64,000 nt of DNA from Balanoglossus misakiensis (GCA_040954595.2 CM082577.2:14515903-14579902); one strand, 5' to 3'. Shown: positions 8,992 to 60,469, counted from the stretch's first letter. Numbers and translations are program-made. The notes: generated by a model from the letters alone, not told the origin.

Positions 8992-10890
8992 ATGGGTCGA
9001 TATGGTTTGGCTCATATTGTAACCGATGTCAAAAGACACGCTTCTGAAATTAGGGACCCTGTGTACGGCGTGCTTGCAGCGGACGTCAACAGGTGGCGAT
9101 TAACAAAACTCCCTGTCCGATGGGAGCATGTACACGGGAGAGGAGAAGGTAGTGAGGACATTGGAAAGTCTTCTATACTATCGAGTAAGGGTATTGGTTA
9201 CGTGAAAAACTGGTGGCTCGATTTTTCGTATCCAGGATCATATTTTGCAGTGGCCGTTTTATTGGAATTGGATGCCAAAGACTATATACAGAGTCCATTC
9301 TCTAGCGTGTTTAATAGCGTGTCATTGAGTCAAGATGCGAAGAATCGAGGGAAGTGCTTCGACATATCTCTAGTCAGAACTGGAGCAAGACATGGTACGC
9401 GTGCCTTGTTCTTTGATGACCTCAATCAAGTTCGTTTGGCAAGTCGCAAATATTTTGGTTTAGACTCAACTTTCACGGATGTCGTAAGTAAATACAAAGC
9501 GATCCGCGGGAGATATAACGCATACAGATCGAACGGTGGCTGCAGACTAAAGTATAAACGTGCAACATCCAACCAACATAATGTCAATATGGACGGTAGG
9601 GCGGACGGCAAAGCGTTGAATCATGAGGAACTGGAAATGACTAACCAGTTTACAAGTAAGCAAGATGCAGATCACGATACGCATGACACCCGAAAGGAAG
9701 GCGAAACACGACTGATACACATGTTAGGACAAAATAATGAAAAGGCCACTGTCCATGAGAGGACAGACTCGCCACGCACTCCTGCACCTAACACTGAAAA
9801 TTCGCTGGCTAAGGAGTTGGCGTTAGTCAGCAAATTGGCACAGAATCTTCCCAAAGAGGACGCTGTACAGTTGATGGAACTGTTTGAGAATCGGGACGAG
9901 AAAATAAATTCCATGGACAATATGGCGTTGACCATGTCGTTACAAGTTCAGAAAATCTTGCAACTAGTCAGTAACATAATGGACGAACAAAACACACCGG
10001 AATCCAGGAAACGCAGGGATGATCTTATGGAACTCCGTCAAAAACTCACCAGAGAGCCCATGGATCAAGGTCATATAAACGCCTCATTTTCGAAACTTGG
10101 TGAATCATACCAAGACATATCGAAGGAAGCAAACAAGGTTCCCAGAGCATCTATGGACGAGGCAGTCAGTAATAAACTGATCGACTACTATAAACGTGTT
10201 ACTAACGTGCTCAAGAAGCAATCAAACCCGGATACAATAAGTGAATCCAATATGTCCTCTTTGAGTAAAGATCAACAGGAACGCATGGCTAGAATTAAAC
10301 AACATATGTCAGAAAGCCCAGACATATACCAATACATACAGTCACTAGAGGCGGCAGTGGATAGTAGTCTACTCCAAGGTATACGTGAAAAATCCCCGCG
10401 ACCACACGGTAGTCTGTCGCGTCATGCTGCGCAACAAAATGCTACCTATAGAGACCGCGACGATGGGTATTCGCCACATTATCACACGCAAAAAATCACG
10501 GGACCTAGTCAGGAGCCCTACCAACGGCGTCAACCAACGCATGAGTGTATGTGTGAGGATTGTCAGCCCATACGTCACACCAAATCTCCCCACCTGCAGA
10601 ACCGACGCCAAGGATCTCCGCAATACCCCATAAAGACCCATCAATCTAAGCACAATTCTGAAGCTATGCAACAGCGCAAAGATGCGACCCAGTGTGATCG
10701 ACAGCAAGACTGTACTGCAAAATCGTGTCGCCAACCGGACTCCGAGGATAAAATCGACGCCAGTTTCAGTGGTCATTCGGAGCACCAACAGACATTCTGG
10801 AAATTGAGGAAGCCAATAGTATACGATAATGATTTTCCGGAAGGATTTTGTGACGACGGACCACCAATAGTCAAGAGAATCAAACATTAG
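8992..10890 (+). CDS. Capsid maturation protease (assemblin/HK97 prohead protease fold) fused to scaffold
   Basis: LPVRWEH (catalytic His), IGYV, SVSLS (catalytic Ser), DISLVRTGARHGT (oxyanion Arg); helical/low-complexity C-terminal scaffold; position beside the capsid genes. Confidence 0.8.
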   Translation: MGRYGLAHIVTDVKRHASEIRDPVYGVLAADVNRWRLTKLPVRWEHVHGRGEGSEDIGKSSILSSKGIGYVKNWWLDFSYPGSYFAVAVLLELDAKDYIQSPFSSVFNSVSLSQDAKNRGKCFDISLVRTGARHGTRALFFDDLNQVRLASRKYFGLDSTFTDVVSKYKAIRGRYNAYRSNGGCRLKYKRATSNQHNVNMDGRADGKALNHEELEMTNQFTSKQDADHDTHDTRKEGETRLIHMLGQNNEKATVHERTDSPRTPAPNTENSLAKELALVSKLAQNLPKEDAVQLMELFENRDEKINSMDNMALTMSLQVQKILQLVSNIMDEQNTPESRKRRDDLMELRQKLTREPMDQGHINASFSKLGESYQDISKEANKVPRASMDEAVSNKLIDYYKRVTNVLKKQSNPDTISESNMSSLSKDQQERMARIKQHMSESPDIYQYIQSLEAAVDSSLLQGIREKSPRPHGSLSRHAAQQNATYRDRDDGYSPHYHTQKITGPSQEPYQRRQPTHECMCEDCQPIRHTKSPHLQNRRQGSPQYPIKTHQSKHNSEAMQQRKDATQCDRQQDCTAKSCRQPDSEDKIDASFSGHSEHQQTFWKLRKPIVYDNDFPEGFCDDGPPIVKRIKH

Positions 10891-10924
10891 CGTGAGAGAA
10901 TAATTTACAACACAGGAAGAAAGA

Positions 10925-11845
10925 ATGTCCATCAGAAACGCGCAAGTAAAAGCCCCTCCAGTTGAAGGCCCAGTGATTGCGCTTGAAGTAGACCGCACGT
11001 TCGTTTCACAAAACTTGGACGGTGCGAAGTTATCGGTCACTCAGGATGTGCTCTACCCGAGAGACGACAAGGTCACAATTGTACCGGGACAGGTACTGTT
11101 GGGACACAGGGATTTTGCTTCTAGAAAGTGGGGAGTTGTTCCTTCACCAGCTGGGCTCATGGCAAAGTCATTTGATATACATACTGGAGATATCGAAAAA
11201 AGCAGGCAGATGTGGGAGTTAGACCCACAGGCGTATAAGGTACTGGGTATAGCTTCGACCGAATCCACCGATTGGGAAAAGGGTCAGCTAATGTCGATTG
11301 TGTCAAAGTCACCCAGTACGGGTTTTTTAAACACAGGAGGCAATTGGATAAGAGACGGACAACTTGTCTGTGTGCGTCTCCCAACCCACGAAGAAGCCAA
11401 TCAACACTTGCATCGGTATGGTTCGATCAAATTTGCCACCTATCCCCGCGACGATAACGACGTTCATTCAAATATATACGAGTTTATGGACTATCTAAGA
11501 ATGGAAAAGGATATTGCTGTAGCAACAGGTCACCACAACAAAAGAGAATCGCTGAAAGCGCTCACCGAGATACTATCGCGTTCTGGGGAATTCATTTCGA
11601 GTCATATAGTGCCAGAGCCAAGATCCCGAGCACAATTCGACAACTGGAAGCGTACGGGATATATTTTCAACACTCCATTAACCCTATTCACTGATGAAGC
11701 GCACAGGATATCTTTGCAACATTTTCTCAACAATGTGGTCAAACTTGCCAACACAATTAGATCAAAGAACGACCTGATAATCTTAGGACTCGCCAGGCAA
11801 GATATACACCCTTACGAATACGGGAGCATAGAACTCTACGTTTAA
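10925..11845 (+). CDS. Probable capsid triplex protein (triplex 2-like)
   Basis: VLGIA..FLNTGGNWIRDGQLVCVRLP and C-terminal ILGLARQDIHPYEYGSIEL resemble the triplex pattern as I recall it; ~300 aa; lies between protease and MCP. Confidence 0.6.
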   Translation: MSIRNAQVKAPPVEGPVIALEVDRTFVSQNLDGAKLSVTQDVLYPRDDKVTIVPGQVLLGHRDFASRKWGVVPSPAGLMAKSFDIHTGDIEKSRQMWELDPQAYKVLGIASTESTDWEKGQLMSIVSKSPSTGFLNTGGNWIRDGQLVCVRLPTHEEANQHLHRYGSIKFATYPRDDNDVHSNIYEFMDYLRMEKDIAVATGHHNKRESLKALTEILSRSGEFISSHIVPEPRSRAQFDNWKRTGYIFNTPLTLFTDEAHRISLQHFLNNVVKLANTIRSKNDLIILGLARQDIHPYEYGSIELYV

Positions 11846-12518: not shown

Positions 12519-15500
12519 ATGCTGAATCCGTTCAGACGGGGTCAACCCAACATGAGCAGGCCTTTGATGACGTCTGATCTACTAAATTTTGACAATTTTT
12601 TTGCAGACGACGGGTCAAACCCGCCCTCTGGTCAGGGTCGATTCGGGGGAACATTCTCATCCAATCCAAACTATATCGGACATCGAAACCAGGGTCACAC
12701 TGCCACAGACACCGATTGGGTTGCCCCGAAAGATGTCTTATTGAGTCAAAGGATATTATACGACTCGATCTCGCCTGATGAAGGCGTTGTTAAAGTGGGT
12801 GGTGATAGGTTGGCTTGGTTTTGTCCCATCGCTATTTTCAATGGAAGACCCAATTTTGCAATACAGGAAATCATCGCCCCGGCTTCAGTTGTAGATAAAT
12901 GTACATCCGCGTCTACTCTGCCAACACTGGGCGTTGAAAAGCAGTCGAGACAGTATACCATGGATATGATGGGCGTTGCCATCAGTTTAGCTCCAGAGCT
13001 TATTCAAAGAGGGACTGTTAACCAGATAAGGAATGCGTACAAACTCAAGGTCAAACAGGTGGTCGACAGTATCGCAATGACACTACAGGCAGTAGTATAC
13101 AGTAATGTATTCGGTGGTCCCACACTCGAATACATGGAGTTTCGCAGGATGGGCAACGAAAGAGATGTTTCTAGAGCTAACCTATTTTATGGTACATATC
13201 AGAAAAGAATCGACAATTTTCTACTATGGAACCTGGGGCGAACAAACAAGAAAGCTGTGTTAATTGACTTGGATAACTGTTTGAATTACAGTTCGAACAA
13301 CGACGGTGATGCCGACACAATAATATGTCACCCTGTCGTCGCAGGTGTCTTGAGGGAAACTGTCGCGCCTAATCTAGGCACGCAAGAAACTCGAGAAACC
13401 TATTTTGTGAATACGTCTGATAATCACATTGTGTATAATCACCATCTTCAACCAGACCCAAACCTCTCCCACCAAGTTCATGCTCCAAATTTAAGAACAA
13501 TAGTTAATGCAAAAGTTAAGTACATTATTCCCTGTCCGGATGTACGAATAAACAATGTCAAGTCGAATCTCAGTGAACTCGAGGCCAACTTCAAATCGTT
13601 TAACGTTATAGGATATTGTCCATTACTGCAACAAATGGGTAGTCTACTGGACTTCAAACAAACCACATCTGTGGATTGGAATTCCATATACGTTACCGAC
13701 TTTGAGAAACGATACGATTCGAGGGTTACCTTGGACGAGGTGATGGAACAGGGTGGTTATTTTGTACCAGAAACATACAACGCGAGTTCTTATAACAATC
13801 TATTGAGAAGTGCAGACTTTATTGAATTGACGACCATAACACCAGCCGAGTATTATCGATCATGCACAATGCCTTTCACTGGAAAGGAGAAATCCTGCTT
13901 GTTAGATCCTAGTCGAAAAGTGTATTATGACCCGGACAGACAAACATTTCTACCCGCGTTCACTTATGGACACAGCAACGTGAGCACCTGTCCCGTCGAC
14001 AGGGGTGACATTGTCGCCGGTATGACGTTCATGTCCAGGACAATGGTTGGCCTCGGAGAGCATTGCGACGAGGAATTGTTATGCAACTATGTAAGAGACT
14101 GTCTGTCGCTGGAATGGTCTCAGGAGGATTTCGACACCCTTATGCTGTTTGATCGCACACCGTTTCACGAGGCAATGGGCGATGTGGCAGAAGTTGGCAA
14201 TACCAGTGATGGGAATGGAAGTGGAGAAGGTTCAGGTAGCCAGGGGACATTGGCCCAAAGGGTTATCAGGGACGTCACTTCTCATAGTGGCGCCACACAT
14301 TTTACCAATTACGATCAATTGCTAATCGTCCGTCATATTTGTCAGCAACGCAGATGCATCGATCGAGAAAGAGAGGAAGGTGGTCGTGCAGGTGCTACCG
14401 CTATGAACGCATTAGACTGCGCAATTGTCAACATTACTATGATTATAGAATGGGTAGACTTACTCTATGACAAATATAAAACAGTAACCAAATCCAGGCC
14501 AGATACTACACACAGTTGGTTGTTCACGCCATTGGGTCATGAGACTCTACAAAAAGTATTTCACGATGACCGCCTAGATGAAGCGGATGAGAGAGATTAC
14601 ACGCATATGTTACGCAACAAGGCTGCTCTGTACCACAATGTATTTCTGAGAGCATTTTCGCCGGTTGTATATGTTGCGGGAAATTCTTCTTTAGACGAAG
14701 CTATAGAGGCCGGCATCGTGAACGTTGTGGGGCTGGGTGACATTACACTGAACGAGGAGGTTTATCATTACAATTGTAACTTTAGTACATATTCAGCCAG
14801 GCGGACATTCAATACTATAGCTGATTCGTCATTCATACGCCCCAAGCAAAGATTTGTTATCTCCGATTTGAGTCCATTGCACTCATACAACAATGACTCT
14901 CCTGTCGATGCGGAACACTTTCTGAACCATAACTATTCCTACAGGTTGTCATGGATCTGCAGTTCGTCATACAGTCTCATGATCAAGTGTTTTACCATGA
15001 TTTTCATTAGCATGTTACAAAACCCAACCACTACTAGAGCGTTAGCAAAAGAAGGGATATATTTAAACACGGCGTTTCTTTTGTTCAGAAATGTGGTACA
15101 GCGGACATGTAGCATCGCCATGGCGCGATCTGGTAGAGAGAACAGGTTCTTGTTTTGTGGCAATAGCACTACAAATAGTTACCATAGTAATGCCACCAGT
15201 TATGTGACGAATTGTCGTTTCGAGACAAATATGGTGGACTTCGACCCGATCAATAACACCAGGGTACAGTTGCACGTGGGAGGTCTGGGTTATAACAGGG
15301 GGATGGGTTCAAAAATTAGGGACCCGTTCACGGAGGGGACGTCCGATGGTAGGGGCGACTTTGTTGTTGTACCTATGTGTCCGATCGTAGATGTTGGGCT
15401 CTGGAATCACATTCAACCTATGAACGGGCGAGTTACGTTCGAAGATGGTAATTCAAACAAAAAGGCCACGAGAATAGACACTGTCCAAGGTATTTACACC

Positions 15501-15986
15501 AATAATCCGTGGTCAACGGCTGGACTGTCAGAGGCTCAGATTATACATGGTAACATGCGACATCCCTTATGGGTTCACAATAGTAACAAGCACGGGACGT
15601 TCAAGTGTTTCTTACAGGCCAAGACACCGTCACCACAATACCAAGTTGGTATTGATGAATTTTATAGGCCCATAGATTCCAATGGTCTACAGAGAGAATC
15701 AAACATAGCTGTACAGGGTAGGCAGTACCACAACAACATTGACTGTCCATACGCTTTCAAGACTCTTAACAGAGGGTTTTATGGAATGGACGAAAATAGT
15801 AGCAATCGCTTCCAAGACGCCCTCAACGTCTCCACCGTTCGTGATGACGAAGGTTTACATCTGATGGATCCAATCACGATTCAACCGTCTGTCAAGAGAA
15901 CGGACAAGTACTACGCAGAGACTGGAATCCGTAAGAAATTCAAGCCAGACGACGCGTCGCGTCAACACAGACTAATACCTATTTAG
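12519..15986 (+). CDS. Major capsid protein (HK97-fold, herpes/mirusvirus type)
   Basis: 1155 aa; N-terminal floor-like segment (FCPI..SRQYTMDMMGVAISL..YKLKVKQVVDSIAMTLQAVVY; ADTIICHP); follows the protease-triplex genes. Confidence 0.7.
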   Translation: MLNPFRRGQPNMSRPLMTSDLLNFDNFFADDGSNPPSGQGRFGGTFSSNPNYIGHRNQGHTATDTDWVAPKDVLLSQRILYDSISPDEGVVKVGGDRLAWFCPIAIFNGRPNFAIQEIIAPASVVDKCTSASTLPTLGVEKQSRQYTMDMMGVAISLAPELIQRGTVNQIRNAYKLKVKQVVDSIAMTLQAVVYSNVFGGPTLEYMEFRRMGNERDVSRANLFYGTYQKRIDNFLLWNLGRTNKKAVLIDLDNCLNYSSNNDGDADTIICHPVVAGVLRETVAPNLGTQETRETYFVNTSDNHIVYNHHLQPDPNLSHQVHAPNLRTIVNAKVKYIIPCPDVRINNVKSNLSELEANFKSFNVIGYCPLLQQMGSLLDFKQTTSVDWNSIYVTDFEKRYDSRVTLDEVMEQGGYFVPETYNASSYNNLLRSADFIELTTITPAEYYRSCTMPFTGKEKSCLLDPSRKVYYDPDRQTFLPAFTYGHSNVSTCPVDRGDIVAGMTFMSRTMVGLGEHCDEELLCNYVRDCLSLEWSQEDFDTLMLFDRTPFHEAMGDVAEVGNTSDGNGSGEGSGSQGTLAQRVIRDVTSHSGATHFTNYDQLLIVRHICQQRRCIDREREEGGRAGATAMNALDCAIVNITMIIEWVDLLYDKYKTVTKSRPDTTHSWLFTPLGHETLQKVFHDDRLDEADERDYTHMLRNKAALYHNVFLRAFSPVVYVAGNSSLDEAIEAGIVNVVGLGDITLNEEVYHYNCNFSTYSARRTFNTIADSSFIRPKQRFVISDLSPLHSYNNDSPVDAEHFLNHNYSYRLSWICSSSYSLMIKCFTMIFISMLQNPTTTRALAKEGIYLNTAFLLFRNVVQRTCSIAMARSGRENRFLFCGNSTTNSYHSNATSYVTNCRFETNMVDFDPINNTRVQLHVGGLGYNRGMGSKIRDPFTEGTSDGRGDFVVVPMCPIVDVGLWNHIQPMNGRVTFEDGNSNKKATRIDTVQGIYTNNPWSTAGLSEAQIIHGNMRHPLWVHNSNKHGTFKCFLQAKTPSPQYQVGIDEFYRPIDSNGLQRESNIAVQGRQYHNNIDCPYAFKTLNRGFYGMDENSSNRFQDALNVSTVRDDEGLHLMDPITIQPSVKRTDKYYAETGIRKKFKPDDASRQHRLIPI

Positions 15987-16276: not shown

Positions 16277-17658
16277 CATGGTGTATTATTTGCTGACCTT
16301 ATATTGGCAAGCTTCACAAATGGTGACCCCGACGTGATGAATTCTCAAGGCATGAGTGTATTGTATTTACAATCGTGACGTTACTGGTTACCGACTCACC
16401 CTCTCCAGACAAGTGACGCACACGATCACGGCCAGTATGTATGGCAGGAAATCACACGCATTAATTCCCGAATAAAATTTGGGATAACGATTATTTAAAA
16501 CGGAATGCTTGTTTTGAGAAAGCTGCCCGTCTCGCGCATAAAAGTTCAACATATTTGAAATATCTTAAATAAAAGTGAATAAGCTTTCAATATATATATA
16601 ATGACAACAAAATGGTTTAACACGTAACAAAAATATAAATTCTGTACAAAAATTCATGAATTCTTGTCAATGAATCTCAGATATAATAAATAATGTCTAT
16701 ACAGCGTGATTTTGATTGTCTTTTCCATGTAACGTAAATACCACAACGTAGTTCTTCTCCAGGCGATGGGAAAATATAGTCTCTTGCCATGGACGAGCGA
16801 AATTTAATCTATCAGGGAAATATATCTGCTCACAAATGCGCGCCATATTGGGTGGCAAAGCGCGTCGTCGTCATCAAAAGTGGAAATCAACACTAGAACG
16901 TGAACATCGCTTTTGATGTCCGTTTCTCGAGTCACAGTTTCAAGTCTGAATACTCCAACACGACATATTAAAGCTCTGTCTCTTCCACCTCCAGTTTTGA
17001 TTGTATAAACATCGTCGCGTCCGATGGCGCGATCATTTGGTGCAGCGTTCGGTCGGGTGCGAAATTTTCCCTTCAAGACGGTGTGATTTTTTTCCTCATA
17101 CTAATTCTGTGTAACTACGAGTCTTGGCTGTCATTATGAATACGATTTCAGTTCGGCAAAAACTTCTGAAAAATACGTACTCTCCTTGTTTATCCGTAAC
17201 ATGTTGGCACTACAGTCATTTATAATTTTCAGGCTTCTGTCCCCGAATCTGTCTCTGTCGTCTTCAACTAGGAACGGTTTTAGCGGATAACTGATCTCGT
17301 TGCCCACGTAACTATAGGATAAGTACAGACATGTGAGCACGACGGCTTGTAGCTCAGACTCGGAGGTGATTTTGTCGTCGACAAAGTCCCGACATAACAT
17401 GTACACGAAGACAAGGTTTGCCGGGGTGATGAAGGCAATGTCCTGCCACCCTTGCAAGAGCAGGGACCTGTCCACTGATCGCAGCCACATTATGGCATCG
17501 TTGCCTTCGAAGTCCCGCAAGCAGGAGCATCGCCGACTGAGGAAATTTCCCAGACACTTCAGCAGTTCTCCGGTGGACGCTTGGATGGTTTTCTTGGTGT
17601 TCGGCGTTTTCACCGCCATGGTGTATTATTTGCTGACCCTATATTGGCAAGCTTCACA
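16277..17658 (+). repeat. 42-bp direct repeat (16277-16318 and 17617-17658) bracketing the captured segment
   Basis: CATGGTGTATTATTTGCTGACC(T/C)TATATTGGCAAGCTTCACA, 1 mismatch. Confidence 0.9.
17134..17619 (-). CDS. CDK5R1: CDK5 activator (p35/p39 family), N-truncated p25-like core only
   Basis: [68 protein letters not shown] matches the p35 activation domain. Confidence 0.93.
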
Positions 17659-19009: not shown

Positions 19010-19588
19010 ATGACAGAACAAACGTCAATGTCGTCTCAATTAGACCCCGAAATGTGTATTTGTCGCATATGCCAAGAAGGTGAATCGTGTGCTGAAGGCG
19101 GCATGCTTTTGATTGCACCTTGTTTATGCAAAGGTAGTCTGAAGTTTGTCCACCGTAGGTGCATCCAAACCTGGATAAGAAGCGCTCGTATCAACCGATG
19201 TGAAATTTGTAATGCACGCTTCAAAATCATGGTTGAGACTAGACCAATATCAGAATGGACATTGCCGAAGATGACCAGAACGATATGGATAAATATTGCA
19301 CTTGTGTTGTCGTGTACTGTGTGTATATTAGGCATATCATTACACATGCACCTTTTGGTGGAATCCCTATTTCTAAAGATGGATGCACTGAATACATTTT
19401 TCGTGGTGGCTTGCGTGTTGCTGGCACTTATGGCGCTGACTGCATTTGTCCTCCTAGAGACTTTTAGGTGCGTGGACGTGTATGTGTGGTTAAGAGAGAA
19501 CAACAGAGAGATAGGTGTTAAGGACTATTGCCCATCTTCTCAACAAATACATGGTGGTGATGAAGACATACGCACGAATACGGTGTAG
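19010..19588 (+). CDS. MARCH-family (RING-CH) membrane E3 ubiquitin ligase
   Basis: CRICQ..LIAPCLCKGSLKFVHRRCIQTW..CEIC followed by two TM helices. Confidence 0.92.
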   Translation: MTEQTSMSSQLDPEMCICRICQEGESCAEGGMLLIAPCLCKGSLKFVHRRCIQTWIRSARINRCEICNARFKIMVETRPISEWTLPKMTRTIWINIALVLSCTVCILGISLHMHLLVESLFLKMDALNTFFVVACVLLALMALTAFVLLETFRCVDVYVWLRENNREIGVKDYCPSSQQIHGGDEDIRTNTV

Positions 19589-21087: not shown

Positions 21088-21536
21088 CAAGACTGTCAGG
21101 AATTGTACATGGCACGCAGTAAATGAAATATTCGCGATAGAAAGAACAATAGCAATAAGAAGAAGAATTACAACAAAGTGTCGTGTCCCTAAAATAACGG
21201 AACTGTTCAACATTGATGAAGATATGAGGTCGTTACCGCAACTTAAAGATGGCAGAACTATAACAATTGCCATAATAGTTCTTTTTTTTTATTTCTTGGG
21301 TGTGTCATAACATAGGTTCTACAAAATATACGGACTCTCCTTTCAATACATGCATCGTCCAATCAGGTAAATAAACAAACAACCCATAAATGTATGGATG
21401 TCTGCGATACTGTGTACATAATTTAACATAAATAAATAAATACATATCCGTATAAATGCCCACTTGTCTGTGTCCATCTTCGTATTTATATTGCAATTTT
21501 ATCACGGGTCAGAGCCTTATAACGTTAAACCTGGTC

Positions 21537-24500
21537 ATGAATGTAGGAAGGCGGCGTGTTTACCTGTTAAAACTAGAAGTCAAAGGGAGAGGAGTCAACG
21601 CATCCGACCTCTGTACCATCTTCGGCAAACTTCCCAATGGGCGTAGTATCGCGTTGGACATACTCGACCCAGTATATAGGATTTATTTGAATCCCATCAA
21701 CGAGGTTAGGGACGAGGAAGAAGTGTGCGCCCTCATTCATCAGTATACCAGCACGTTTTCCAATAACTTCAGCGTTGGTAAAACGTCAAAGGTAATCGGC
21801 AATGGTTACGCGGGGGATTCTCGACTGCCATTTTGGTACGTCGAGTCGTCGGAAAATGCGGTTGTTAAACAGGTGCAAAAAAATCTACCACGCTCCATTT
21901 TCAATTTTTTTATGGACGGCTGTGGAAAGGCCTATTTGGACGTAGCGGCCAATATGAACATCGGGGGTGTTGGTTGGCACTGGATTAAGTCGTCAAGATA
22001 CGTAACGGGATGCAAATGCCATTCGTGGTATGGCAAAGAACATGATCATGCCACTGTGAGTGATACCCACTCCATTGAGCCCCAACGAGAAGGCGAAAGT
22101 AGTCCACCACCACCCATTAACATTCTTCAACTGAAAGTTCATTGCTATCCAGACGGTGTAATCGCATTTATTACCTGTTCGTTGTTACGATGGGCAAAAG
22201 ATTTGACTTGTCTGTTTAATAATACATTCCGTAATTGTACCGTTGTGAAGTTTAGAACCACGATGTATGGTGGTGATATCTCAAATGTAGTAAATTGCAG
22301 GGATGAAGGTAATGTGTTACGCGCATTCACCAAAATCATCACTACCTGTGACTATGACTTTTTATGTGGATATTTTTTGGAAAAGGAACAGTTAAGAGTG
22401 TTAAAGGAGAGAAGTTGTCTTCACGGGCTCAACTTGATAAACCCTTTATTAATCAGGGATATTCGCCACACGCCTTTCATCAACAGGTGGGATAATGACC
22501 CACGCGGTATTGGCTTGATCGACATATGTACTGACAAACACGCGGATGGTCCGGACGCCTACAAATACATCAAAGACACTGTATTTAACAAAGGCTTCCT
22601 GAACACATACTTATCAACTTGCGAAGCGGCTACTATATTCTGTAGCCGACTAACTCACAAGAAGTCAAATGTAGATATTATACAGGTACCATACATGGAT
22701 TTTTTTGAGTCAGCTATGACTCGTAAGGCTAAACAACTTGGGTACGTCTTTGCATGCAGGGAAATCGGAGGAAGCAATGCGACGACGAGTCATTCTGAAT
22801 ATGAGATTGAAGCAGATCGAGGTCAAGGTTGTCAAGGCGGTTTGTTTCTCACGCCGGTTCAAGGGTTACACGTGGGCAATGCAGAATTGAGAGATTTTAA
22901 AAGCATGTACGGTTCCATAATAGTTGCATTTAACATCGACATCACCACTAGTTTGCAAGAATCACGCGCGGGTTTATTAAATGATGTAATTGAGATACCA
23001 GGTGGCTACAACTTTGTTAGCCCAAATGTTCGGCAGGGGTTACTACCGTCTATAGTTTCAAATCTTGTCGCGCAACGGGAACACTTCCAGAAAATTGCCC
23101 AGAGCAACAACGAAAACGGGAGTTGGTACGAAATGCAACAAATGGCACGGAAACAATTGATTGTGGGAGCTTACGGAGTCAATTTACGTCAGAGTATATT
23201 CACAAGCCCGTGTGTGGCTAAGGCCATTACATCCACTGGTAGATTCCTCTTTGAACGGATGAGAGTAACAGCCGCGTCATTCACCCACCCACATTTATTG
23301 ACGACACCCAGTGTCCTATTTGGAAATGCAGATTCTCTGATGACCAGTTTCCTGCCAGCACGTGAATTGTCTAACGTCGAATGGACCGAAGTTTTCATGG
23401 ATATTGGACAGTGTTTCCACGACGACATTCGTAAAGTAGTTCAAACCATGGGCGCGAATATAGATGCGCGTTTATTGCGGTTTGAGTCGAAAGGGCATGC
23501 AAAAATAGTAATGTGTACGAGTCGCAAACAACAGTATGTGATGTGCATTAGGTCAACTTCCAAAAAAGGATGTTGTTTAGTTGTCAAAGGGTTTGTATCG
23601 AACTCTACAAACTGCCATCCCTTGGTGAGAAACGTGGAAAGATGTATGCTGTCACTCCTGTTTGAAGGTCATGTATTGCTTAGGTCTGTAGAATCTGGGC
23701 AACTGTCAACACTTCACCCAAGTGAATTGTCCACACGCTCGCAACTGATATATGAAGCGTACGTAGCATCATCTGGGGTGTGGGTGAAGGTTGGAGATGC
23801 TATAAACCAAGATACTGGTGTTAAGAACTCCTTTCGTTTGCGAGATAATTTAGGCAGAGAATTGTGCGAACGCCTTTTTGACGAGGACGGCATTCCGATA
23901 CTCACCACTGACAGACTCAGAGAAATAAGGTCTGAAGTGGAGACGGTTGTGTTGTACACGTTAAACAGAGTCATAATGTTGCAAGAAGACACGCACCTGT
24001 TGATAAAACATTTGCCACCGAATGCTAACCCTGGTGCAAGGTCGACGTTGGAAAAACAATACATGCAATTTCACGGGAGATTGCCTTGTGATATATTATA
24101 TGTGAATACCAAAGAAGATGGACCAATGCACCCTCTTTTGGCTGTCTTCCAACAGAAAACACTAGAGACAGATGACACAATTGCATCGATAAAAAAGACC
24201 TTTATTGAGGGGGGTGACGAAGGTGGTCCGTATTCCATTATGAATGTTATGAGGCCCAACGTCAAGACATTACACGGAGTATTGTGCATGGAAACAGAAT
24301 CAACTGTGCAAAATCAGTTAAGAGTACAAAGACAGTTTCGGAAACGATTCGATTCTGTCCTCGCTATGTCCTCTAAGAAAGTCGAACACCCCGTGTGCAA
24401 TAATGAAGAGGAATATGTGATGACAAAATTGTTGAATTTTACCAACTGTCCGGATTGTAAAGTTATCACTGTAGATCGAGCTAATCGCGACTACAACTAC

Positions 24501-24740
24501 ACCGACATGTTCGGAACTGATGCGATAATCCGGAAGCATAATTTGGTTTTATTCAATGTATGCAAACAAAGTTCGCGTGTGTATTTCATATCCAATTGTA
24601 AGGATGTCCAGTGTGTAGGCGTATACAAATTTGCCACCTTGGTGAATCAATTGAAAATACTAACTGCACTTAAAAACAAGGAAGCAATGGTAAACAAAGT
24701 GTCAACTGTTTTGACTGAACGTCTCACGAAATCACAATGA
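21537..24740 (+). CDS. Family B DNA polymerase, Pol-delta-like, with degenerate exonuclease and polymerase motifs
   Basis: QGGLFLTP, DFKSMYGSIIVAFNI (motif A), GLLPSIV, KQLIVGAYG (B), ITSTGR, FGNADS (C), LRFE, VVKG; C-terminal CPDC..CKDVQC. Confidence 0.85.
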   Translation: MNVGRRRVYLLKLEVKGRGVNASDLCTIFGKLPNGRSIALDILDPVYRIYLNPINEVRDEEEVCALIHQYTSTFSNNFSVGKTSKVIGNGYAGDSRLPFWYVESSENAVVKQVQKNLPRSIFNFFMDGCGKAYLDVAANMNIGGVGWHWIKSSRYVTGCKCHSWYGKEHDHATVSDTHSIEPQREGESSPPPPINILQLKVHCYPDGVIAFITCSLLRWAKDLTCLFNNTFRNCTVVKFRTTMYGGDISNVVNCRDEGNVLRAFTKIITTCDYDFLCGYFLEKEQLRVLKERSCLHGLNLINPLLIRDIRHTPFINRWDNDPRGIGLIDICTDKHADGPDAYKYIKDTVFNKGFLNTYLSTCEAATIFCSRLTHKKSNVDIIQVPYMDFFESAMTRKAKQLGYVFACREIGGSNATTSHSEYEIEADRGQGCQGGLFLTPVQGLHVGNAELRDFKSMYGSIIVAFNIDITTSLQESRAGLLNDVIEIPGGYNFVSPNVRQGLLPSIVSNLVAQREHFQKIAQSNNENGSWYEMQQMARKQLIVGAYGVNLRQSIFTSPCVAKAITSTGRFLFERMRVTAASFTHPHLLTTPSVLFGNADSLMTSFLPARELSNVEWTEVFMDIGQCFHDDIRKVVQTMGANIDARLLRFESKGHAKIVMCTSRKQQYVMCIRSTSKKGCCLVVKGFVSNSTNCHPLVRNVERCMLSLLFEGHVLLRSVESGQLSTLHPSELSTRSQLIYEAYVASSGVWVKVGDAINQDTGVKNSFRLRDNLGRELCERLFDEDGIPILTTDRLREIRSEVETVVLYTLNRVIMLQEDTHLLIKHLPPNANPGARSTLEKQYMQFHGRLPCDILYVNTKEDGPMHPLLAVFQQKTLETDDTIASIKKTFIEGGDEGGPYSIMNVMRPNVKTLHGVLCMETESTVQNQLRVQRQFRKRFDSVLAMSSKKVEHPVCNNEEEYVMTKLLNFTNCPDCKVITVDRANRDYNYTDMFGTDAIIRKHNLVLFNVCKQSSRVYFISNCKDVQCVGVYKFATLVNQLKILTALKNKEAMVNKVSTVLTERLTKSQ

Positions 24741-36700: not shown

Positions 36701-37704
36701 GTAGTAAACTTATGATCTTCTTTGTTTCCAGAGCCAAACTTTCGATATTCGCTGACTCTTCTTTCGAAAAAGTTTGTTTTTCCATCAAGAGCGATGTTTT
36801 CCATAAAGGGAAAGGGATTGTCTACTTTATACAGTTTATCCACGCCCAATTCTCCAAGTAATCTGTCCGCCACAAATTCCACGTATTGTTTCATTTTGTT
36901 GGCATTCATCCCGAGCAAGGGTTCTGGAAGGCTTTCGTCGACAAATACCTTCTCGATCTCAGTACCTTCTTTTACAATGTCAATAACTGTGTCCTCGGGG
37001 GGTTTGTCTCGAAGAGGTAATTTATGGTACATGAGACAAGCAAAATCGCAATGTAATCCCTCGTCACGACTGATTAACTCATTAGAATGACACAGACCGG
37101 GTAGAAACCCCTTTTGCTTTAACCAAAATATACCGGCGAAAGCCGAAGAAAATAGAACCCCTTCGACCACGGCAAACGCCACCAGTCTAGTAGCGAAAGT
37201 AGACGCCTCGTCTTCAATCCACTTTGAGATCCATTTTGCCTTTAGATTAATACTCGGTACGGTTAATACAGCATTAAAGAGTCTTTGTTGCTCTTGGCTG
37301 TTCTCGGCGTAAGTCTCTATTAAGAGTTTGTACATCTCCGAATGAATGTTTTCCATTGCTGTTTGAAAGTCGTAGAAATATTGGGCTTCCAATATGGTCA
37401 CTTCACGAGAGAATCTATTGACTAAATTCTCGGAGACTATCATATCGCTACTCGCAAAAAAGGCTAAGATCATTTTCACGTACATTTGCTGTGTCTCTGT
37501 CATGAGTTTCCACGTCATCAAATCTTTACTAGTATCTACTTCACCTGGGACCCAGTAGGAAGACTTAGCCTTCTCATACATGTCCCACAGGTCATGGTGT
37601 TCAATATCTCTGACACAAAACCGACGGAGGTCTATGGTTTTATTCGTTCCCTTAGATACAGCTATTTTTGACTGTACCTCACGGAGGATATTTGTCGCGT
37701 CCAT
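36685..37704 (-). CDS. RRM2: Ribonucleotide reductase small subunit (class Ia R2)
   Basis: LAFFASSD, ENIHSEMY, VEGVLFSSAF, ISRDEGLH, GKTNFFERRV, C-terminal FTTDIEF. Confidence 0.97.
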   Translation of the reverse strand: MDATNILREVQSKIAVSKGTNKTIDLRRFCVRDIEHHDLWDMYEKAKSSYWVPGEVDTSKDLMTWKLMTETQQMYVKMILAFFASSDMIVSENLVNRFSREVTILEAQYFYDFQTAMENIHSEMYKLLIETYAENSQEQQRLFNAVLTVPSINLKAKWISKWIEDEASTFATRLVAFAVVEGVLFSSAFAGIFWLKQKGFLPGLCHSNELISRDEGLHCDFACLMYHKLPLRDKPPEDTVIDIVKEGTEIEKVFVDESLPEPLLGMNANKMKQYVEFVADRLLGELGVDKLYKVDNPFPFMENIALDGKTNFFERRVSEYRKFGSGNKEDHKFTTDIEF

Positions 37705-42691: not shown

Positions 42692-43084
42692 CTATCTAAC
42701 CATTTTCATATGGATAGGTTCCACTCCCGATCGCCCTTCATATCGAGCACATATAGCACTGTCTTGTAAGAGTCTGATCGTATACATCTCGGCTGCCATC
42801 TGAAGACTGTCAAAAGCTTGTCGAGTAAATTTGATCTCTTTTGAATGATTTCTGCGAACGATCTCTCTAACTATAGCTTTGAAAACCGGTTCGTCGATGA
42901 CGAATGGATGTCCTGTATAAAAATAATAACAGTGAATATTGAACGAGTATCACGGCCGCTAAAGTTATTGTGAATTAAGCGTCAGTTCATGCCGGAGTTA
43001 TTGAGTGTACATACCGATGGTCGGTGAACGATTCTCTTTGATTGAACATCTTTGCTTGTACGGTGAAAACGCTTTCCCCCGCAT
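42692..43084 (-). CDS. Divergent, tailless histone H3-like protein, 96 aa, spliced (exons 43084-43015 and 42912-42692); absent from the ORF track
   Basis: Manual translation gives MRGKAFSPYKQRCSIKENRSPTIG/HPFVIDEPVFKAIVREIVRRNHSKEIKFTRQAFDSLQMAAEMYTIRLLQDSAICARYEGRSGVEPIHMKMVR*, which aligns with H3 [69 protein letters not shown]; donor G|GTATGT, acceptor TTTTATACAG|; TATATA at 43145-43150. Confidence 0.82.
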
Positions 43085-43563: not shown

Positions 43564-45183
43564 ATGGCCGAACTATTCAGTGTTTCAATAAGGAGGCCGG
43601 TCAGTATCATTTTGTAATACCTTTTCCGTATTTTTACATCTTCGGGTGGCATAACCCCCACCTTTTATTTCTTTACTTAGGTGAGTATGTGGCATTTGAG
43701 ACACGTAAATAAGGACGCGAAATGTAAAGCTATGGGAATAGCCAAGAAATTAGAGACAGCGCCCACTAGCGGCCGAAAAACAATGTCGAAAGGTGAGTAT
43801 CGCGCGTTCGTCAGATATGCGTTATATTTAATGGTTTTGCGTTTCTGTGCGGTCGTTGATGACCGAGCCAATGATCCGTGTAAAATCAGCACCCATACTT
43901 CGAGATATCGGTGGTTTCTTGAACCATTGTATTTTATTCCGGTTTCAGGCACGAACATCGTTCTACACAATTCAGTACAGTGTTCACAGCCCTTACCCGA
44001 AACCTCTCACGTATTGGACGCCTTGACTAGAGTACATTGTGTGATTGAAGGCTGTTACAACCCAAGTGCCAGAATAGTCAGCACCGATAATGTACACGGT
44101 CTAATGCACGCTGTGCAGATGGCATACAGAAAAAGCTATCCGTTGGTTTTGAGTCCAGATATTGTGTGGTTGTGTATTTCACAAGGATTTATGCAACACA
44201 TGTGCTCCGACGACCGTTTGTACCGCCTACTAATCAAAACTCACGAGAATACAAGCGTTGAATCTACCATGTCCCACCTCGACGACAAGTCAGAATTTGG
44301 GGAATGGAAAACTGCGTTAATCGACTTGTCAAACCATGTTCGCGAAACCCTAGGAGAGTGTAATTACGGAATGATGACACCAGACTTTACCACAACCAGC
44401 CTACAAGATAAAATTGTAGGAGATTTGACAGTGTCTGCCCAAGTGGACCCGAAGTTTTCGTATTTGCTGCAACCAGGTGAAGTAAAAAATCAGCGTCCTT
44501 TGACTTCGAATGGAATTCCCTCTATTTTTTTAGAAGGCTGCCTAGATGATTGGACGGCGATCCGGCGTAATACTGTCAAATTGGGGTGTTATGATCTGAA
44601 CTGGTGGACCGATGGTGTGGTAAAAATTCTTGACAAATTTATAAAGGCGAAAGAAGGAGTGATCGACAGAGAATTCTGGTCAGGCATATATGAGGCAAGT
44701 ATTGTAAAGGAGATTGCATGAATTATTGTATTTACCCCTCTTAGTTGTTTCGAGTATCAATTATTTTGAACCATGTATATGTATTCCGCGGTTACAATCA
44801 TAACACGTTTGTGTTTTGGGGGTTTTCTGTGGGGTGGGGGGTGGGGGTGGAATACCATCCCTTATACATCGTCTCTTTCGCTCTCTCATTATCAGATGGT
44901 TGAGTACCCATGTGGCCCATGTATCACCGGGTGGATCGTCGACCTGTTTCCGTATTTCATGTACAAACAGGACCGAGAATCAACAATACTGGCGGACTCT
45001 TTTCCATCTGGTCTGTCGATAAACCCTTTCAACGTGGGACAATCCGCAGAAGTCTCGAAACTGGCGCTTGTAAGCGGGTTCATGGGAGTATCTCAAGACG
45101 CTGATACACTAGCTCTCAGACCGGAATTGGGATGGGTCGTTCTCAACCACAACAAGAACAACGGCTCACCGACCAAGATATAA
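43564..45183 (+). CDS. DUF4419-family protein, four exons (43564-43599, 43681-43792, 43949-44694, 44896-45183)
   Basis: HGLMHAVQMAY..YPLVLSPDIVWLCISQGF, PDFTTT, GIPSIFLEGCLDDW, EFWSGIY, ITGW..FPY, FPSG, LVSGFMG..LRPELGW; canonical splice signals join the pieces in frame. Confidence 0.8.
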
Positions 45184-45465: not shown

Positions 45466-46854
45466 TTACTGGGTGAACATATGAGGATGAATATTACGCT
45501 TTATGGCAGAATCTCTGTTTTCTCCGTGTTTATTTTTCTCTTCTTTGGGAGTGGACTGACTGGAATCTATGTCGGTCTCTTGTGAAGTTTCGGTGTGTAT
45601 AAGGTGTCTCGTATTCCCAATCATTTCGATGTCCGGAGGTAACCTCCCCCGGTTATTCGCAATAGCATACGCGGTAGAAGTTGATGAAGGTACATACCCA
45701 CCATGGAACGCGAGCAGTAATCCGTGATATACAGTCAATATGGCCGCTCGGATCACCCACGCTGTATACAATATTTTCCCCCATAAAGGTCCGACACTGT
45801 TTATAGGACAGTGCCTTGCATCTCTTCCAGCTAAATTTGAAGAAAGTATACTTTGTATACACTTGTCTTCAGAGACAATGTCATGTACACTGTAACATTT
45901 CGGGAACGCAGGTATCCCATCGTTTACACATGGCCCGCTAATGAGAAAAATGCCATGTTTGAGTAAATCCAAGACAGCATATGCTACCGAGCTGAGGGCA
46001 AAAATATAAGCCACTACAGACAGTACCCGGACAACGCAGGTGTCTTCCTGTTTACGATTGGACTCTCGATATAGCAAGACTTTACTCCCTTCTAAGTAAT
46101 AACTCAATATACAGTTCACTAAAAATGCCATCGTTGGGGGCCATGTTATTAGCTCATATTTACCATAGGATGGTAGCAATTCGACAAACAAACAAGCTAT
46201 CATAATTATCATTCCAAACAAATACTTTGTAAAGGGAATATTCCCGTATACAAACGACTGATATTGTCTGTCGTATATGTGAAACTGCGTATCTGTAGTA
46301 CATCGTTCTTGCCCGCGTGTATGTATATGTATTAACAGTGGTAAAACTCCGCTTGGAACATATCTCAACAGACACATAATTATGTAATACATGGCTGCTG
46401 CTTCTCGTCCCAATCTCACGTCCGGACACCGTTCGTAGTCCACGTTGAATTTCAGAGGATTTTGTACAGACAGGAAGCGAGTACATTGAGCCAGTGACAT
46501 ATTTAGACATTGCACGTTCGTTCTCACATCCCGTTCGGCAGTGGAACAGTTAGCCAAGTGTTCCATTATATTAAACATCAGAGACACGTTTGCACAAACG
46601 AAAAGTAGAATACATGCCACCGAGGCCAATTTCGATAGTATCGTATGCACCATCACATCCCGTTTTTCGTGCGATTCACTAGCAAATTTAGAACACAAGT
46701 AATATACTATAGCCGGAAAGATGACTTCATAGTCTACCAGTGAATATATGTCCGTTTGAAAGAGAATTTCTACTAACCACGTTAAGAGTAGGCACAATAC
46801 AATGATAGTGGCCCAAAATTGGTCTTTCATTATTCCAATATCATACAATAACAT
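45466..46854 (-). CDS. Multi-pass membrane protein with an internal two-fold duplication
   Basis: About 8 hydrophobic segments; both halves show YYL..E..K....V..L..VA, a Cys-rich loop and CP...G. Confidence 0.75.
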   Translation of the reverse strand: MLLYDIGIMKDQFWATIIVLCLLLTWLVEILFQTDIYSLVDYEVIFPAIVYYLCSKFASESHEKRDVMVHTILSKLASVACILLFVCANVSLMFNIMEHLANCSTAERDVRTNVQCLNMSLAQCTRFLSVQNPLKFNVDYERCPDVRLGREAAAMYYIIMCLLRYVPSGVLPLLIHIHTRGQERCTTDTQFHIYDRQYQSFVYGNIPFTKYLFGMIIMIACLFVELLPSYGKYELITWPPTMAFLVNCILSYYLEGSKVLLYRESNRKQEDTCVVRVLSVVAYIFALSSVAYAVLDLLKHGIFLISGPCVNDGIPAFPKCYSVHDIVSEDKCIQSILSSNLAGRDARHCPINSVGPLWGKILYTAWVIRAAILTVYHGLLLAFHGGYVPSSTSTAYAIANNRGRLPPDIEMIGNTRHLIHTETSQETDIDSSQSTPKEEKNKHGENRDSAIKRNIHPHMFTQ

Positions 46855-55180: not shown

Positions 55181-55999
55181 ATGTCTCGCGCACACCCTTA
55201 CACTACTTTAAAAAAAAATCGCCTCAAGACTTATTTGACAGTAACGCTGGTAGAAAAATGTAAGATAAATATTAAAAGGGCAAGAAAGGGTTACGTGGCT
55301 ATCGACAAACGGTCTTCTAAAGAATGTCAGCTCACCGGTGTCTACAAGCAGATCAGAAAATATCATTTACCAGCAGAGTGTTACACAAATATTAAGCTAC
55401 GACGACAACGGCGATCGCGCACATACAGCACTAAATGCCCAAGGGAAGCCATGTACTTAGGAAAAAACATTGACAAATCAGTCAAACTTATGTTAAAAGA
55501 GAAACCTATCGCACACACTCCGGTGACACAAAGCATATTCAATTCATTGCGATATTTGGGATACACTCCGCTGACAGCACAACTTCCTGTCACAAACTTC
55601 CAACCGGATCAACAAGATTGTAAGTGGGGTGCAACTGTTGGTGTATTAGACCTCGTAGCATACAACCAAGAAAAGAAAATATATACAGCGATTGAACTCA
55701 AAACAACCTCTAAACACTACAGTGATATTAAAAAAGAACACGATTGGGCGAACCTTAATCCTTCGACCGGCTACAGGCGGTCTTTTTATTCTCAAGCGGT
55801 ACTACAATCCCAGTTAGGAGCTCTCATGCTAATTAATACATTCAACTTAACAAGCGCTGATAGCTTAGTCATTGTTTATTCTTTCGCAGATAAATCCACC
55901 GTTATCGAATGTGTAGGACAATTTAATAACACCACGTCGGCATCTGAATTGTTTCCATGGGTTGTAGGTTACAGGAAACAATGTGTACACAGAAGGTGA
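55181..55999 (+). CDS. PD-(D/E)XK nuclease
   Basis: GVLDLVAY..AIELKT..QSQLGALML. Confidence 0.75.
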   Translation: MSRAHPYTTLKKNRLKTYLTVTLVEKCKINIKRARKGYVAIDKRSSKECQLTGVYKQIRKYHLPAECYTNIKLRRQRRSRTYSTKCPREAMYLGKNIDKSVKLMLKEKPIAHTPVTQSIFNSLRYLGYTPLTAQLPVTNFQPDQQDCKWGATVGVLDLVAYNQEKKIYTAIELKTTSKHYSDIKKEHDWANLNPSTGYRRSFYSQAVLQSQLGALMLINTFNLTSADSLVIVYSFADKSTVIECVGQFNNTTSASELFPWVVGYRKQCVHRR

Positions 56000-58754: not shown

Positions 58755-58990
58755 GACTGTATTTTATCCTTGACTGTGTGTCCGATACTTTTAAATAATG
58801 TCAAATCTGAAAGAATCACTAAAGAGATTAGGATGACCAACAGAAATACAGTGCAAACGCTAGCACACAGGTTACACATGCCTCTGTCCACATTTCTGTC
58901 ATTATGTCTACGTTAATGTCGCGTGTATGTTATTTTTACATCGATAGAGCTCTGATTATCAGAGATTAATTTGTCTTTATTATTATTGCT

Positions 58991-60469
58991 ATGAGTGATC
59001 CAAAGTGTACCATCAGGAGCGCAGAAGATTACAGACAGTGGGTCGAAACACGTAAAAGCGAAACGATGAAGGCGGCTTGTAAAGAGTTTGAGAAAGGCGG
59101 TCACACTCAACTTTTTCTTCTGGATCAGGAACACATGGAAGTACTGCGAGACAGTTTTCACAACAATCCGATCTGTCACTGCGTTCTCACTCGAATTTCG
59201 GACAGTATTTCGGTGTCTGCTATGTTTGAATCAGGTTTAGAATCGTGTGGCCTTCCAGGACACCAGAAAGATGACCCGCTTGTTTCGTGTAGAGTGGGTA
59301 TACTGAACGACTTTGAAAAATCGTTGAAAGGGAAATTGCAGTCATTTATTCGTTCTGTAATCCGATCTGTGTGGATATATGGTTTTGTCGTCATAAGGGA
59401 TTACACAGACGGTACATTTCCCGATGTGCTTGACGACGACAGCTATGTTATTTTTCGAGGCGAGAGCGGAGAACTGTACGCGCGCGAAGTCACTGGTAAG
59501 GATGGGATACGAGTCGTATGCAGGGACCAGCCCGACATGAACGGTCGCGTCAGAGGTGCCATGTCTTATTTATATGATAGAAATTTGAAACTATTAAACT
59601 TGCACAGGTGCAGAGATATGAGCATTCGAAATGCGTGTCGCCATTTTTTCGTGACAGGTTACAGAGATGATGAAGATGAAAAGGACTCCAAACGCAAACG
59701 CTTGGATGCGGATGAACTCGAAAACAAATTAACTCAAAGCGCTATTCAAGCAGTTCTTCGTGCCAGGCTTGGTGTAAGTTCTTCTACCGCCCCAAATTCG
59801 AGTATATTAAACGAAGAACGTGATAACATGTGTAATATACACGAAAAGTCTAAACTCATAGAGGAATTAGAACAAACTAAAACGCGAAATGCCACCTTGA
59901 TGCGATGTCTGGGTGAGATAAAACTGGGACAGTTATTCAACGGGCACGCCCGTTCTTCACAGGCGACTCTCGATAGTGAAGACGCATCCGACCACGTTGT
60001 CCAAAATCTTGGTGAAGACAAAAAACTCGAGGCCTATTCATTAAACGTTCGTCCACTCGATACAAGTGTGTATGAAGACAACTTCAACCAGCAGGTTCGC
60101 AACACTCTGTTGGGTAGTATCACGCTTAAAAATAACGGTGATCCTGGACGAAGACATTGGGGAAAGCACGGTGCGCACGACGGTGTGTCCGGGAAGGAAA
60201 ATGTGCAGTTGCTGGTTGACGCGTGCTCTCTGGCTTGGCAAGATTTTATAATAAATGCAGCTCTTGCCCCGTGGATTGAAAAAACGGGCGTTCGTTTGAT
60301 ACCTAAAAGAAGTAAACGCATCGAAGACTTACATTCAATTATCCCTTTCATGAAATATATAAAGAAGGACAGATTCACGAAAATACTCGCAGAAACGCTC
60401 GACGTACCAATGGACGATTTTGATACGGGTGTAGAACAAAATTTGGATATATTTAAAGAGTTTGATTAA
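58991..60469 (+). CDS. Probable portal protein
   Basis: 492 aa; FIRSVIRSVWIYGFVVI helix-G-strand and PDMNGRVRGAMSYL..long helix resemble the HK97-lineage portal pattern; central coiled coil. Confidence 0.5.
   Translation: MSDPKCTIRSAEDYRQWVETRKSETMKAACKEFEKGGHTQLFLLDQEHMEVLRDSFHNNPICHCVLTRISDSISVSAMFESGLESCGLPGHQKDDPLVSCRVGILNDFEKSLKGKLQSFIRSVIRSVWIYGFVVIRDYTDGTFPDVLDDDSYVIFRGESGELYAREVTGKDGIRVVCRDQPDMNGRVRGAMSYLYDRNLKLLNLHRCRDMSIRNACRHFFVTGYRDDEDEKDSKRKRLDADELENKLTQSAIQAVLRARLGVSSSTAPNSSILNEERDNMCNIHEKSKLIEELEQTKTRNATLMRCLGEIKLGQLFNGHARSSQATLDSEDASDHVVQNLGEDKKLEAYSLNVRPLDTSVYEDNFNQQVRNTLLGSITLKNNGDPGRRHWGKHGAHDGVSGKENVQLLVDACSLAWQDFIINAALAPWIEKTGVRLIPKRSKRIEDLHSIIPFMKYIKKDRFTKILAETLDVPMDDFDTGVEQNLDIFKEFD

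Follow-up and report, generated by a model that had tools for sequence, protein, structure and literature searches.

The window and its capsid module

The stretch of DNA considered here, hereafter the window, comprises 64,000 nucleotides (64 kb) from the Balanoglossus misakiensis assembly (GCA_040954595.2, CM082577.2:14515903-14579902). It represents a partial genome, and all coordinates are positions within it. The genes discussed below are those of a putative large DNA virus, namely a herpesvirus-type major capsid protein (MCP) with its neighbours, a divergent DNA polymerase, two genes with predicted introns and a CDK5 activator of animal type. With a G+C content of 42.6% and a CpG observed/expected ratio of 1.04, the window is packed on both strands with long intact open reading frames (ORFs), the largest of 2246 aa, and 36 gene models give a coding fraction of 77.5%. 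A first-pass annotation had delimited the viral region at 8992..60469; these limits proved too narrow, since the genes at 5716-8804 also have homologs in a related metagenomic contig (L001, see below).

The Pfam scans covered the 36 large ORFs, 17 smaller ORFs and 134 stop-to-stop gap frames, and it is to this set that the Pfam results refer. Families were found for 7 genes: the CDK5 activator, a ribonucleotide reductase small subunit, a family B DNA polymerase (PolB), a RING-CH protein, a DUF4419 protein, a histone fold and a dNK-like kinase. The remaining ORFs were orphans in Pfam, PHROGs and NCBIfam; PHROGs matched none of the 13 proteins compared with it, and NCBIfam returned only generic PolB and coiled-coil matches. 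The initial view that no protein of the window is close to a known virus was upheld at the sequence level (Pfam, PHROGs, PDB and phmmer).

The gene at 12519..15986 (+), which encodes 1155 aa, was recognised as an MCP of the herpesvirus type through the matches of its predicted structure to herpesvirus MCPs. At the sequence level, nothing in Pfam, PHROGs or the PDB matched it, the PDB sequences having been searched with both the single sequence and the family profile. A full HMMER phmmer search of 1.84 billion representatives yielded 14 proteins at E<=1e-3, and P0017 was the sole addition from a word-based protein search with the MCP family profile. In a quick tree of 14 rows, three deep clades were observed, in which the window grouped with P0002 and P0001, with the middle clade at 35-41% identity and the distant clade at 20-27%. 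No relatives of the MCP, of the triplex candidate described below or of PolB were found in IMG/VR.

When the AlphaFold model of the MCP was searched with Foldseek against the PDB, 57 matches at E<=1e-3 were obtained, and all 25 of those listed are herpes capsid entries, aligned over ~1000-1130 columns at a template modelling (TM) score of ~0.25. In BFVD, 5 matches reached E<=1e-3, of which three are MCPs of alloherpesviruses and the other two an unnamed protein and a protein of a tupaiid herpesvirus. The list was led by the MCPs of Ranid herpesvirus 3 (1.4e-9) and Lake sturgeon herpesvirus (5.5e-8) and by ORF80 of Ranid herpesvirus 2 (1.5e-7). Since the TM score is only ~0.25, the ranking of the herpes families among these matches is unreliable. 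The herpes capsid matches fall in the confident part of the model and stand 10 Z units over all else among 48,161 chains. The tower spans residues ~350-870, and 300-450 residues align with the herpes upper and middle domains, at 6-10% sequence identity to orthoherpesvirus capsid proteins in the structural alignments. As modelled, this tower is a full-size herpes-type middle plus upper domain, and the MCP call of the first pass was borne out by a structure search in which the MCPs recovered were those of herpesviruses only.

In the floor region, the low-confidence model predicts strands at residues 115-125 and 137-146 (a hairpin at 115-146) followed by a 32-residue helix at 167-198. This strand-strand-helix order hints at an E-loop and then a spine helix, labels that are our own reading of the model. 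Over the equivalent stretch, P0009, a fragment related to the MCP, matched Phage_capsid_4 in Pfam at E 2e-4, below the cut-off, and in the ESM Atlas the features of the MCP were nearest to phage MCP clusters, with a score of 0.91 and low recognition. Apart from this, the 14th phmmer match, P0015, is a malectin-domain protein and was excluded from the family count and from alignment A3. Residues 1012-1071 of the MCP (15552-15731) resemble the core motif of this protein (34% over 65 aa), and this malectin-like stretch is kept in the closer MCP relatives.

A metagenome scan revealed one related locus, the 15.9-kb contig L001, which carries homologs of 9 window genes. Positions 5716-15986 are collinear with it, in a block of three conserved orphan genes (5716-6384, -; 7308-8216, +; and 8223-8804, +; 34-41% identical to the L001 ORFs), a 632-aa protein (37%), a 306-aa protein (54%) and the MCP (51%). 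The L001 homologs of three further genes are placed elsewhere than in the window order. One of these genes (25248..31988, -) encodes the 2246-aa protein, which has a long central coiled coil, is conserved at both ends in L001 (its C-terminal end is 33% identical to a 1267-aa ORF) and has family matches of the coiled-coil-type SMC/Rad50 only; a tegument-like role for it is a guess. The others encode a 263-aa membrane protein with four hydrophobic segments (54323-55114, -; 51% identical to its L001 counterpart) and a 1315-aa zinc-finger/RING protein (50068-54015, -; 38%) with a weak zf-RING_2 match. L001 also contains, at 12477-13289, a 270-aa ORF without counterpart in the window, and because the genes that flank this ORF lie ~40 kb from the window capsid module, the two genomes are rearranged outside the capsid block.

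Upstream of the MCP, the 632-aa protein (8992..10890, +; 37-41% identical to L001 5827-7260) is a candidate maturation protease-scaffold fusion. Its N-terminal ~165 aa are conserved and contain the invariant LPVxWEH and SVSLSQ, the middle is variable and charged, and KIDA(S/G)F is conserved ~40 aa before the C-terminus, an I-D-A-(S/G) motif that we take to resemble the (V/L/I)-x-A/S consensus of herpes maturation sites. By analogy, this layout would be that of the herpes protease-scaffold fusion, with which the invariant His and Ser of the two N-terminal motifs are also compatible; no entry of Pfam, PHROGs or PDB matched the protein. The 306-aa gene (10925..11845, +; 54% identical to L001 7284-8210), which lies between the protease-scaffold candidate and the MCP in both the window and L001, has no family or PDB match, and its position and size would fit triplex subunit 2. 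Thus, from the virion gene set proposed at first, the MCP stands, the protease-scaffold and triplex proteins are plausible without a fold or profile match, and the portal was not confirmed. For the 492-aa ORF once called portal-like (58991..60469, +), neither Pfam, PHROGs and PDB sequences nor the ESM Atlas gave a match; the ORF is an unassigned orphan, and the call has no support in any of them.

Polymerase, intron-containing genes and cargo

The PolB gene (21456..24740, +) is very divergent, its Pfam match (DNA_pol_B, E 3.5e-20) covers the palm region only, and its best PDB match is pol delta (3.6e-14), with herpes simplex virus UL30 at 3.9e-9. The only relative revealed by a word-based search, P0018, is 46-47% identical to it. 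The two proteins share motif A (DFKSMYGS); at motif C they have FGNADS (window) and FGHADS (P0018) in place of the usual YGDTDS, and the DIE position of ExoI is occupied by KVH and HVS, respectively. From these residues, PolB is predicted to be an active polymerase without proofreading. The Cys cluster noticed earlier at its C-terminus was confirmed, with four Cys (CPDC ... CKDVQC, i.e., CxxC...CxxxxC) common to PolB and P0018. The nucleotide genes include an animal-like ribonucleotide reductase small subunit (36685..37704, -; Pfam E 1.6e-97), for which mouse R2 was the best PDB match (E 2e-116). A dNK-like kinase is encoded at 6516-7097 (-), with a Pfam score of 28.4 bits (E 1.7e-6) where the cut-off is 27.

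Two genes of the window contain predicted introns. The H3-like histone-fold gene (42692..43084, -) comprises exon 1 (43084-43015), an intron of 102 nt (43014-42913, GTATGT...TATACAG) and exon 2 (42912-42692), with a predicted product of 96 aa whose histone fold was detected within exon 2 at 42695-42949(-) (PF00125, E 1.5e-9). The DUF4419 gene (43687..45183, +) comprises exon 1 (43687-44703), an intron of 192 nt (44704-44895, GTAAAG...TATCAG) and exon 2 (44896-45183); its two parts matched Pfam at E 1.4e-31 and 2.5e-6, and the joined frame is open over 434 aa. The first-pass claims of an H3 histone and of spliceosomal introns found their confirmation in the Pfam histone fold and in these two canonical GT-AG introns. 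AATAAA or ATTAAA occurs within 150 nt downstream in 14 of the 36 genes, against ~0.21 expected per 150 nt, and many of these poly(A) signals come after the final gene in a cluster on one strand. No RNA polymerase domain was found by Pfam in any scanned ORF. The two canonical introns, the poly(A) signals and this lack of an RNA polymerase domain together point to a nuclear life style.

The window also carries a p25-like CDK5 activator of 161 aa (coding sequence 17134-17619, -; Pfam CDK5_activator, E 8.4e-87), which matches human p25 over 152 residues (E 3e-62, ~65% identity as counted from the alignment) and is without the N-terminal part of p35. The gene sits in a 1340-nt unit (16277..17658) that is bounded by two direct copies of a 42-nt repeat (16277-16318 and 17617-17658), and the repeat also supplies the ATG. 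Sequencing data were available as three runs (X1, X2 and X3) of one sample, the library type of X3 not being on record. The word depth of the window was ~135-155 in X1 and 300-470 in X2, and X3 was almost without viral words. In X3, a contig of 2725 nt at depth 26 matched 16900-17616 with 14 substitutions and 34 indel letters; against the viral coding sequence it showed 9 substitutions and no indels over 483 nt (~98% nucleotide identity). This contig departs at 17616 into at least 255 nt of unlike sequence, with the same loose end in X1, X2 and X3, and on the gene strand this continuation lies upstream of the viral start codon, as expected if a full-length cellular gene extends there. In X1 the two versions form a bubble of 124 nt, with depths of 142 (viral) and 59.6 (cellular-type). 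Since depth in contigs does not measure copy number, the 2.4-fold viral excess is only a weak hint against the DNA being a single integrated copy. In X2 no contig covered a part of the p25-like gene, a gap to which no weight was given.

From these sequence comparisons, the viral gene is likely a recent capture of a host CDK5R1, cut to its activating core. Because a cellular-type CDK5R1 ~98% identical to it occurs in the same sample, the sampled animal, or a close relative, is the likely host, and the animal host proposed from the outset is upheld by this copy and by the identity to human p25. A separate observation concerns 17629-17700, which overlaps the upstream copy of the 42-nt repeat and resembles a high-copy element of the sample, with a summed word depth of ~4,900 in X1 and 40,000 in X2 and 7 contigs in which one more T stands at 17672. 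Possibly, this element is a host repeat that played a part in the capture.

Among the RING-type cargo, a MARCH-type RING-CH membrane E3 ligase is encoded at 19010..19588 (+), with a Pfam RINGv match at E 4.6e-13 and two hydrophobic segments. The gene at 133..1050 (+) encodes a RING-finger protein of 305 aa with an IAP-type RING (Pfam zf-RING_5, E 8e-4, below the cut-off; best PDB match the BIRC7 RING, E 0.0023). In this protein the RING was the only domain detected, and a BIR-like Cys/His spacing seen by eye gave no BIR match. The cargo listed at first is thereby reduced to the p35-type CDK5 activator and the MARCH protein, both found by Pfam; the supposed BIR-RING protein retains a C-terminal RING only, and BTB-BACK was not confirmed by profile search. 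Around the 305-aa RING gene, a 55-nt direct repeat (80%) at 4-58 and 1109-1163 was observed, with TGACGC and CTATAAA-like boxes, which is perhaps a repeated promoter.

Relation to known viruses and alternative explanations

The order Herpesvirales comprises three families, one of which infects invertebrates. In orthoherpesviruses the triplex gene UL18 adjoins the MCP gene UL19, and malacoherpesviruses carry RING and IAP-like cargo. The window is similar to Orthoherpesviridae (VP5 of herpes simplex virus 1 and the capsid proteins of human cytomegalovirus, Epstein-Barr virus, Kaposi's sarcoma-associated herpesvirus and varicella-zoster virus) in that the gene of the 306-aa protein adjoins the MCP and in that the 632-aa candidate has, near its C-terminus, an I-D-A-(S/G) resembling the maturation-site consensus. 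No Pfam herpes family was found in the scanned ORFs, and no capsid protein of the PDB was matched by the MCP (phmmer and family profile) or by the triplex and protease candidates. A p25-like activator, an H3-like histone and DUF4419 did not turn up for Orthoherpesviridae in the portions of the literature at hand, no search having been aimed at them.

Alloherpesviridae provide the best predicted-structure matches to the MCP and have an MCP of similar length, and in salmonid herpesvirus 1 (SalHV-1) triplex-2 adjoins the protease gene (ORF23/ORF24; PMC13030845), as the 306-aa gene adjoins the protease candidate here. The same source presents the SalHV-1 MCP, triplex 2, protease, polymerase, dUTPase and terminase ATPase as BLAST-detectable against orthoherpesviruses, whereas the capsid proteins of the window are without any sequence-level match. 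By sequence, the window capsid module is therefore more remote from orthoherpesviruses than alloherpesviruses are, although by fold its MCP goes with Herpesvirales. Malacoherpesviridae (ostreid herpesvirus 1, OsHV-1, and haliotid herpesvirus 1, HaHV-1) have a protease-scaffold fusion similar in size to the candidate of the window, of 689 aa in OsHV-1 (PMC11565193), but none of their proteins was among the 50 listed BFVD matches to the MCP. Other divergent herpes-like sequences have been reported outside the three families, in non-mollusc invertebrates, such as Sandworm and Peanut worm herpesviruses (PMC6950620) and regions related to herpesviruses that lie within the genomes of starfish and ribbon worms (preprint 10.1101/2025.04.19.649669). 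In these two sources, such lineages are represented by terminase/polymerase fragments or embedded regions only, whereas the window is without a terminase and its PolB has one relative. Because divergent herpes-like lineages are reported there from worms and starfish, a new invertebrate one is expected in kind. Literature searches brought up no described lineage that has this capsid module or this cargo, and the supplements of 10.1101/2025.04.19.649669 may list related regions.

Most probably, the window is part of a deeply divergent herpes-type (Duplodnaviria) dsDNA virus that represents a new deep lineage of animal viruses, and the Duplodnaviria, herpes-type assignment made earlier was upheld by the predicted structure of the MCP. 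In such a virus, capsids would assemble as in herpesviruses, with the MCP gathering round a scaffold that bears an N-terminal serine protease and with triplex-like proteins bracing the MCP shell; DNA would be packaged by a terminase and a portal, neither of which was found in the window. Viral genes would be transcribed in the nucleus by host RNA polymerase II, and the transcripts spliced and polyadenylated. The cargo (the p25-like CDK5 activator, the MARCH-type and other RING ligases and the H3-like histone) would reprogram the host cell, with the p25-like gene recently taken from the host and only its activating core retained. A more specific proposal has about an even chance of being right: that the window gives the first long piece of genome from a fourth herpes-like lineage of animals, of family rank or higher, whose three or more deep subclades are so far known only from unnamed proteins in metagenomes. 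On this proposal, the virus would be active in the host from which it has just captured CDK5R1, in a truncated form that would be a constitutive CDK5 activator.

Several points weigh against the assignment to the herpes side. The AlphaFold model of the MCP, built from 16 sequences, has a mean predicted local distance difference test (pLDDT) score of 45 and a confident helical core at residues ~500-850 only, an earlier model from 3 sequences failed (pLDDT 27.7), and because the floor regions are at pLDDT < 50, the HK97 fold of the floor is supported by the hints described above only. Position and architecture are the sole basis of the putative protease and triplex roles; no portal was identified in the 64 kb, nor any terminase ATPase, the sole Walker A/P-loop among the gene models, in six frames, belonging to the dNK-like kinase. 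In its PDB matches, PolB stands no nearer to the polymerases of herpesviruses than to cellular pol delta. With a model of this quality, the capsid match could be an artefact and the virus another large DNA virus (nimavirus-, nudivirus- or giant-virus-like), of which the few BFVD matches at E>0.01 to nimavirus/giant-virus proteins (probability <=0.1) are reminiscent. This explanation is scarcely credible, as the capsid matches are confined to the confident part of the model, to a single protein family and to a level well separated from every other chain, and Pfam found no double jelly-roll or nudivirus/baculovirus core family in the scanned ORFs.

A relationship with Mirusviricota, in which the window would belong to or branch with that group, either as a nuclear lineage without transcription genes or as a true mirus-herpes intermediate, was judged improbable. 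An HK97-type capsid module with tower and triplex, an H3-like histone, GT-AG introns and RING proteins are all mirusvirus-typical, some mirusvirus orders lack replication and transcription genes, and nuclear replication is predicted for some orders (PMC12768974 and PMC10132985); the histone, introns and RING proteins thereby also count against a herpes-side placement. However, only 14 phmmer matches were obtained in 1.84 billion representatives, and hundreds would be expected inside a sampled mirusvirus order. Heliorhodopsin, TATA-binding protein, TFIIS and topoisomerase domains were absent, like RNA polymerase, from the Pfam scans across 64 kb; this lack of giant-virus-like informational genes and heliorhodopsin is read from a partial genome and is shared by some mirusvirus orders (PMC12768974). 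The mirusvirus tower is described as substantially smaller (PMC10132985), whereas that of the window is full-size and herpes-type, a comparison made by description only, as the libraries searched contained no mirusvirus capsid protein. Moreover, the window holds a gene likely captured from an animal, to judge from the ~98% identical host-type gene, whereas mirusvirus hosts are described as unicellular. The position between mirusviruses and herpesviruses put forward in the first-pass annotation is unsupported; the full-size tower points to the herpes side, H3 and introns do not define mirusviruses, and a deep branch on the side of the herpesviruses was judged more likely than an intermediate position. 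An explanation compatible with that deep branch is that the viral copy in the window is integrated in an animal chromosome, as an endogenous and possibly inactive element. Such a state has its counterpart in the regions embedded in starfish and ribbon-worm genomes (10.1101/2025.04.19.649669) and would fit an inverted-repeat element at 37934-38747, the sequence similar to the high-copy element of the sample and the fact that the runs holding the window look like the sequencing of an organism with its own CDK5R1. It is nevertheless unlikely: the large ORFs are all intact, up to 2246 aa, the CpG ratio of 1.04 is not that of an old methylated insert, and positions 1-20000 contain no junction with unlike DNA except at repeats. 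The unequal depths of the X1 bubble (a weak hint only) and the near absence of viral words from X3, in which the cellular-type gene is present and whose library type is not recorded, also speak against it.

If the placement as a deep herpes-type lineage holds, the window provides 64 kb of a lineage that sequence methods link to no described virus, including its capsid module, its polymerase and its cargo. This material could be used for rooting and dating the herpesvirus radiation and for testing its relationship with mirusviruses. The p25-like gene would be a rare, datable host-to-virus capture, and it suggests a takeover of host kinase signalling that can be tested. An H3-like histone together with spliced cargo in a herpes-type virus did not turn up in the parts of the literature available, in which no search was aimed at them.

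Other genes and repeats of the window

A multi-pass membrane protein of 462 aa with six hydrophobic segments and no family match is encoded at 45466..46854 (-). The gene at 55181..55999 (+) is a possible PD-(D/E)XK nuclease, with weak Pfam matches only (YhcG_C, E 0.034; Hjc, E 0.19). The sole paralog pair of the window is formed by 19819-21087 and 34766-36115 (20% identity over 358 aa, E 4e-9), and both members have a Cys-rich CxxC cluster at the C-terminus. The 423-aa ORF at 31990-33261 shows a C-terminal Cys...His pattern (DACFYRC ... NHFDLL) like that of OTU-type cysteine proteases, a likeness seen by eye only and without a Pfam match.

Tandem repeats in frame with coding sequence were observed at 40368-40894, 51426-51975, 28435-28724 and 29372-29599, with units of 96, 135, 135 and 78 nt, respectively; they lie in a lysine/serine/proline-rich protein of 436 aa, in the 1315-aa RING protein and in the 2246-aa protein. 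The element at 37934-38747 occupies an ORF-free gap and consists of 36-nt inverted repeats (94% complementary) around 742 nt with C-rich repeats of 33-35 nt, and it may be a small transposon-like element or a replication origin. Between divergent genes at 56024-56346, a (TA)n run precedes four repeats of 68 nt, each with ACGTCA, and a second (TA)n run was found 6 kb away at 62043-62104; these regions are possibly promoter, enhancer or origin sequences.

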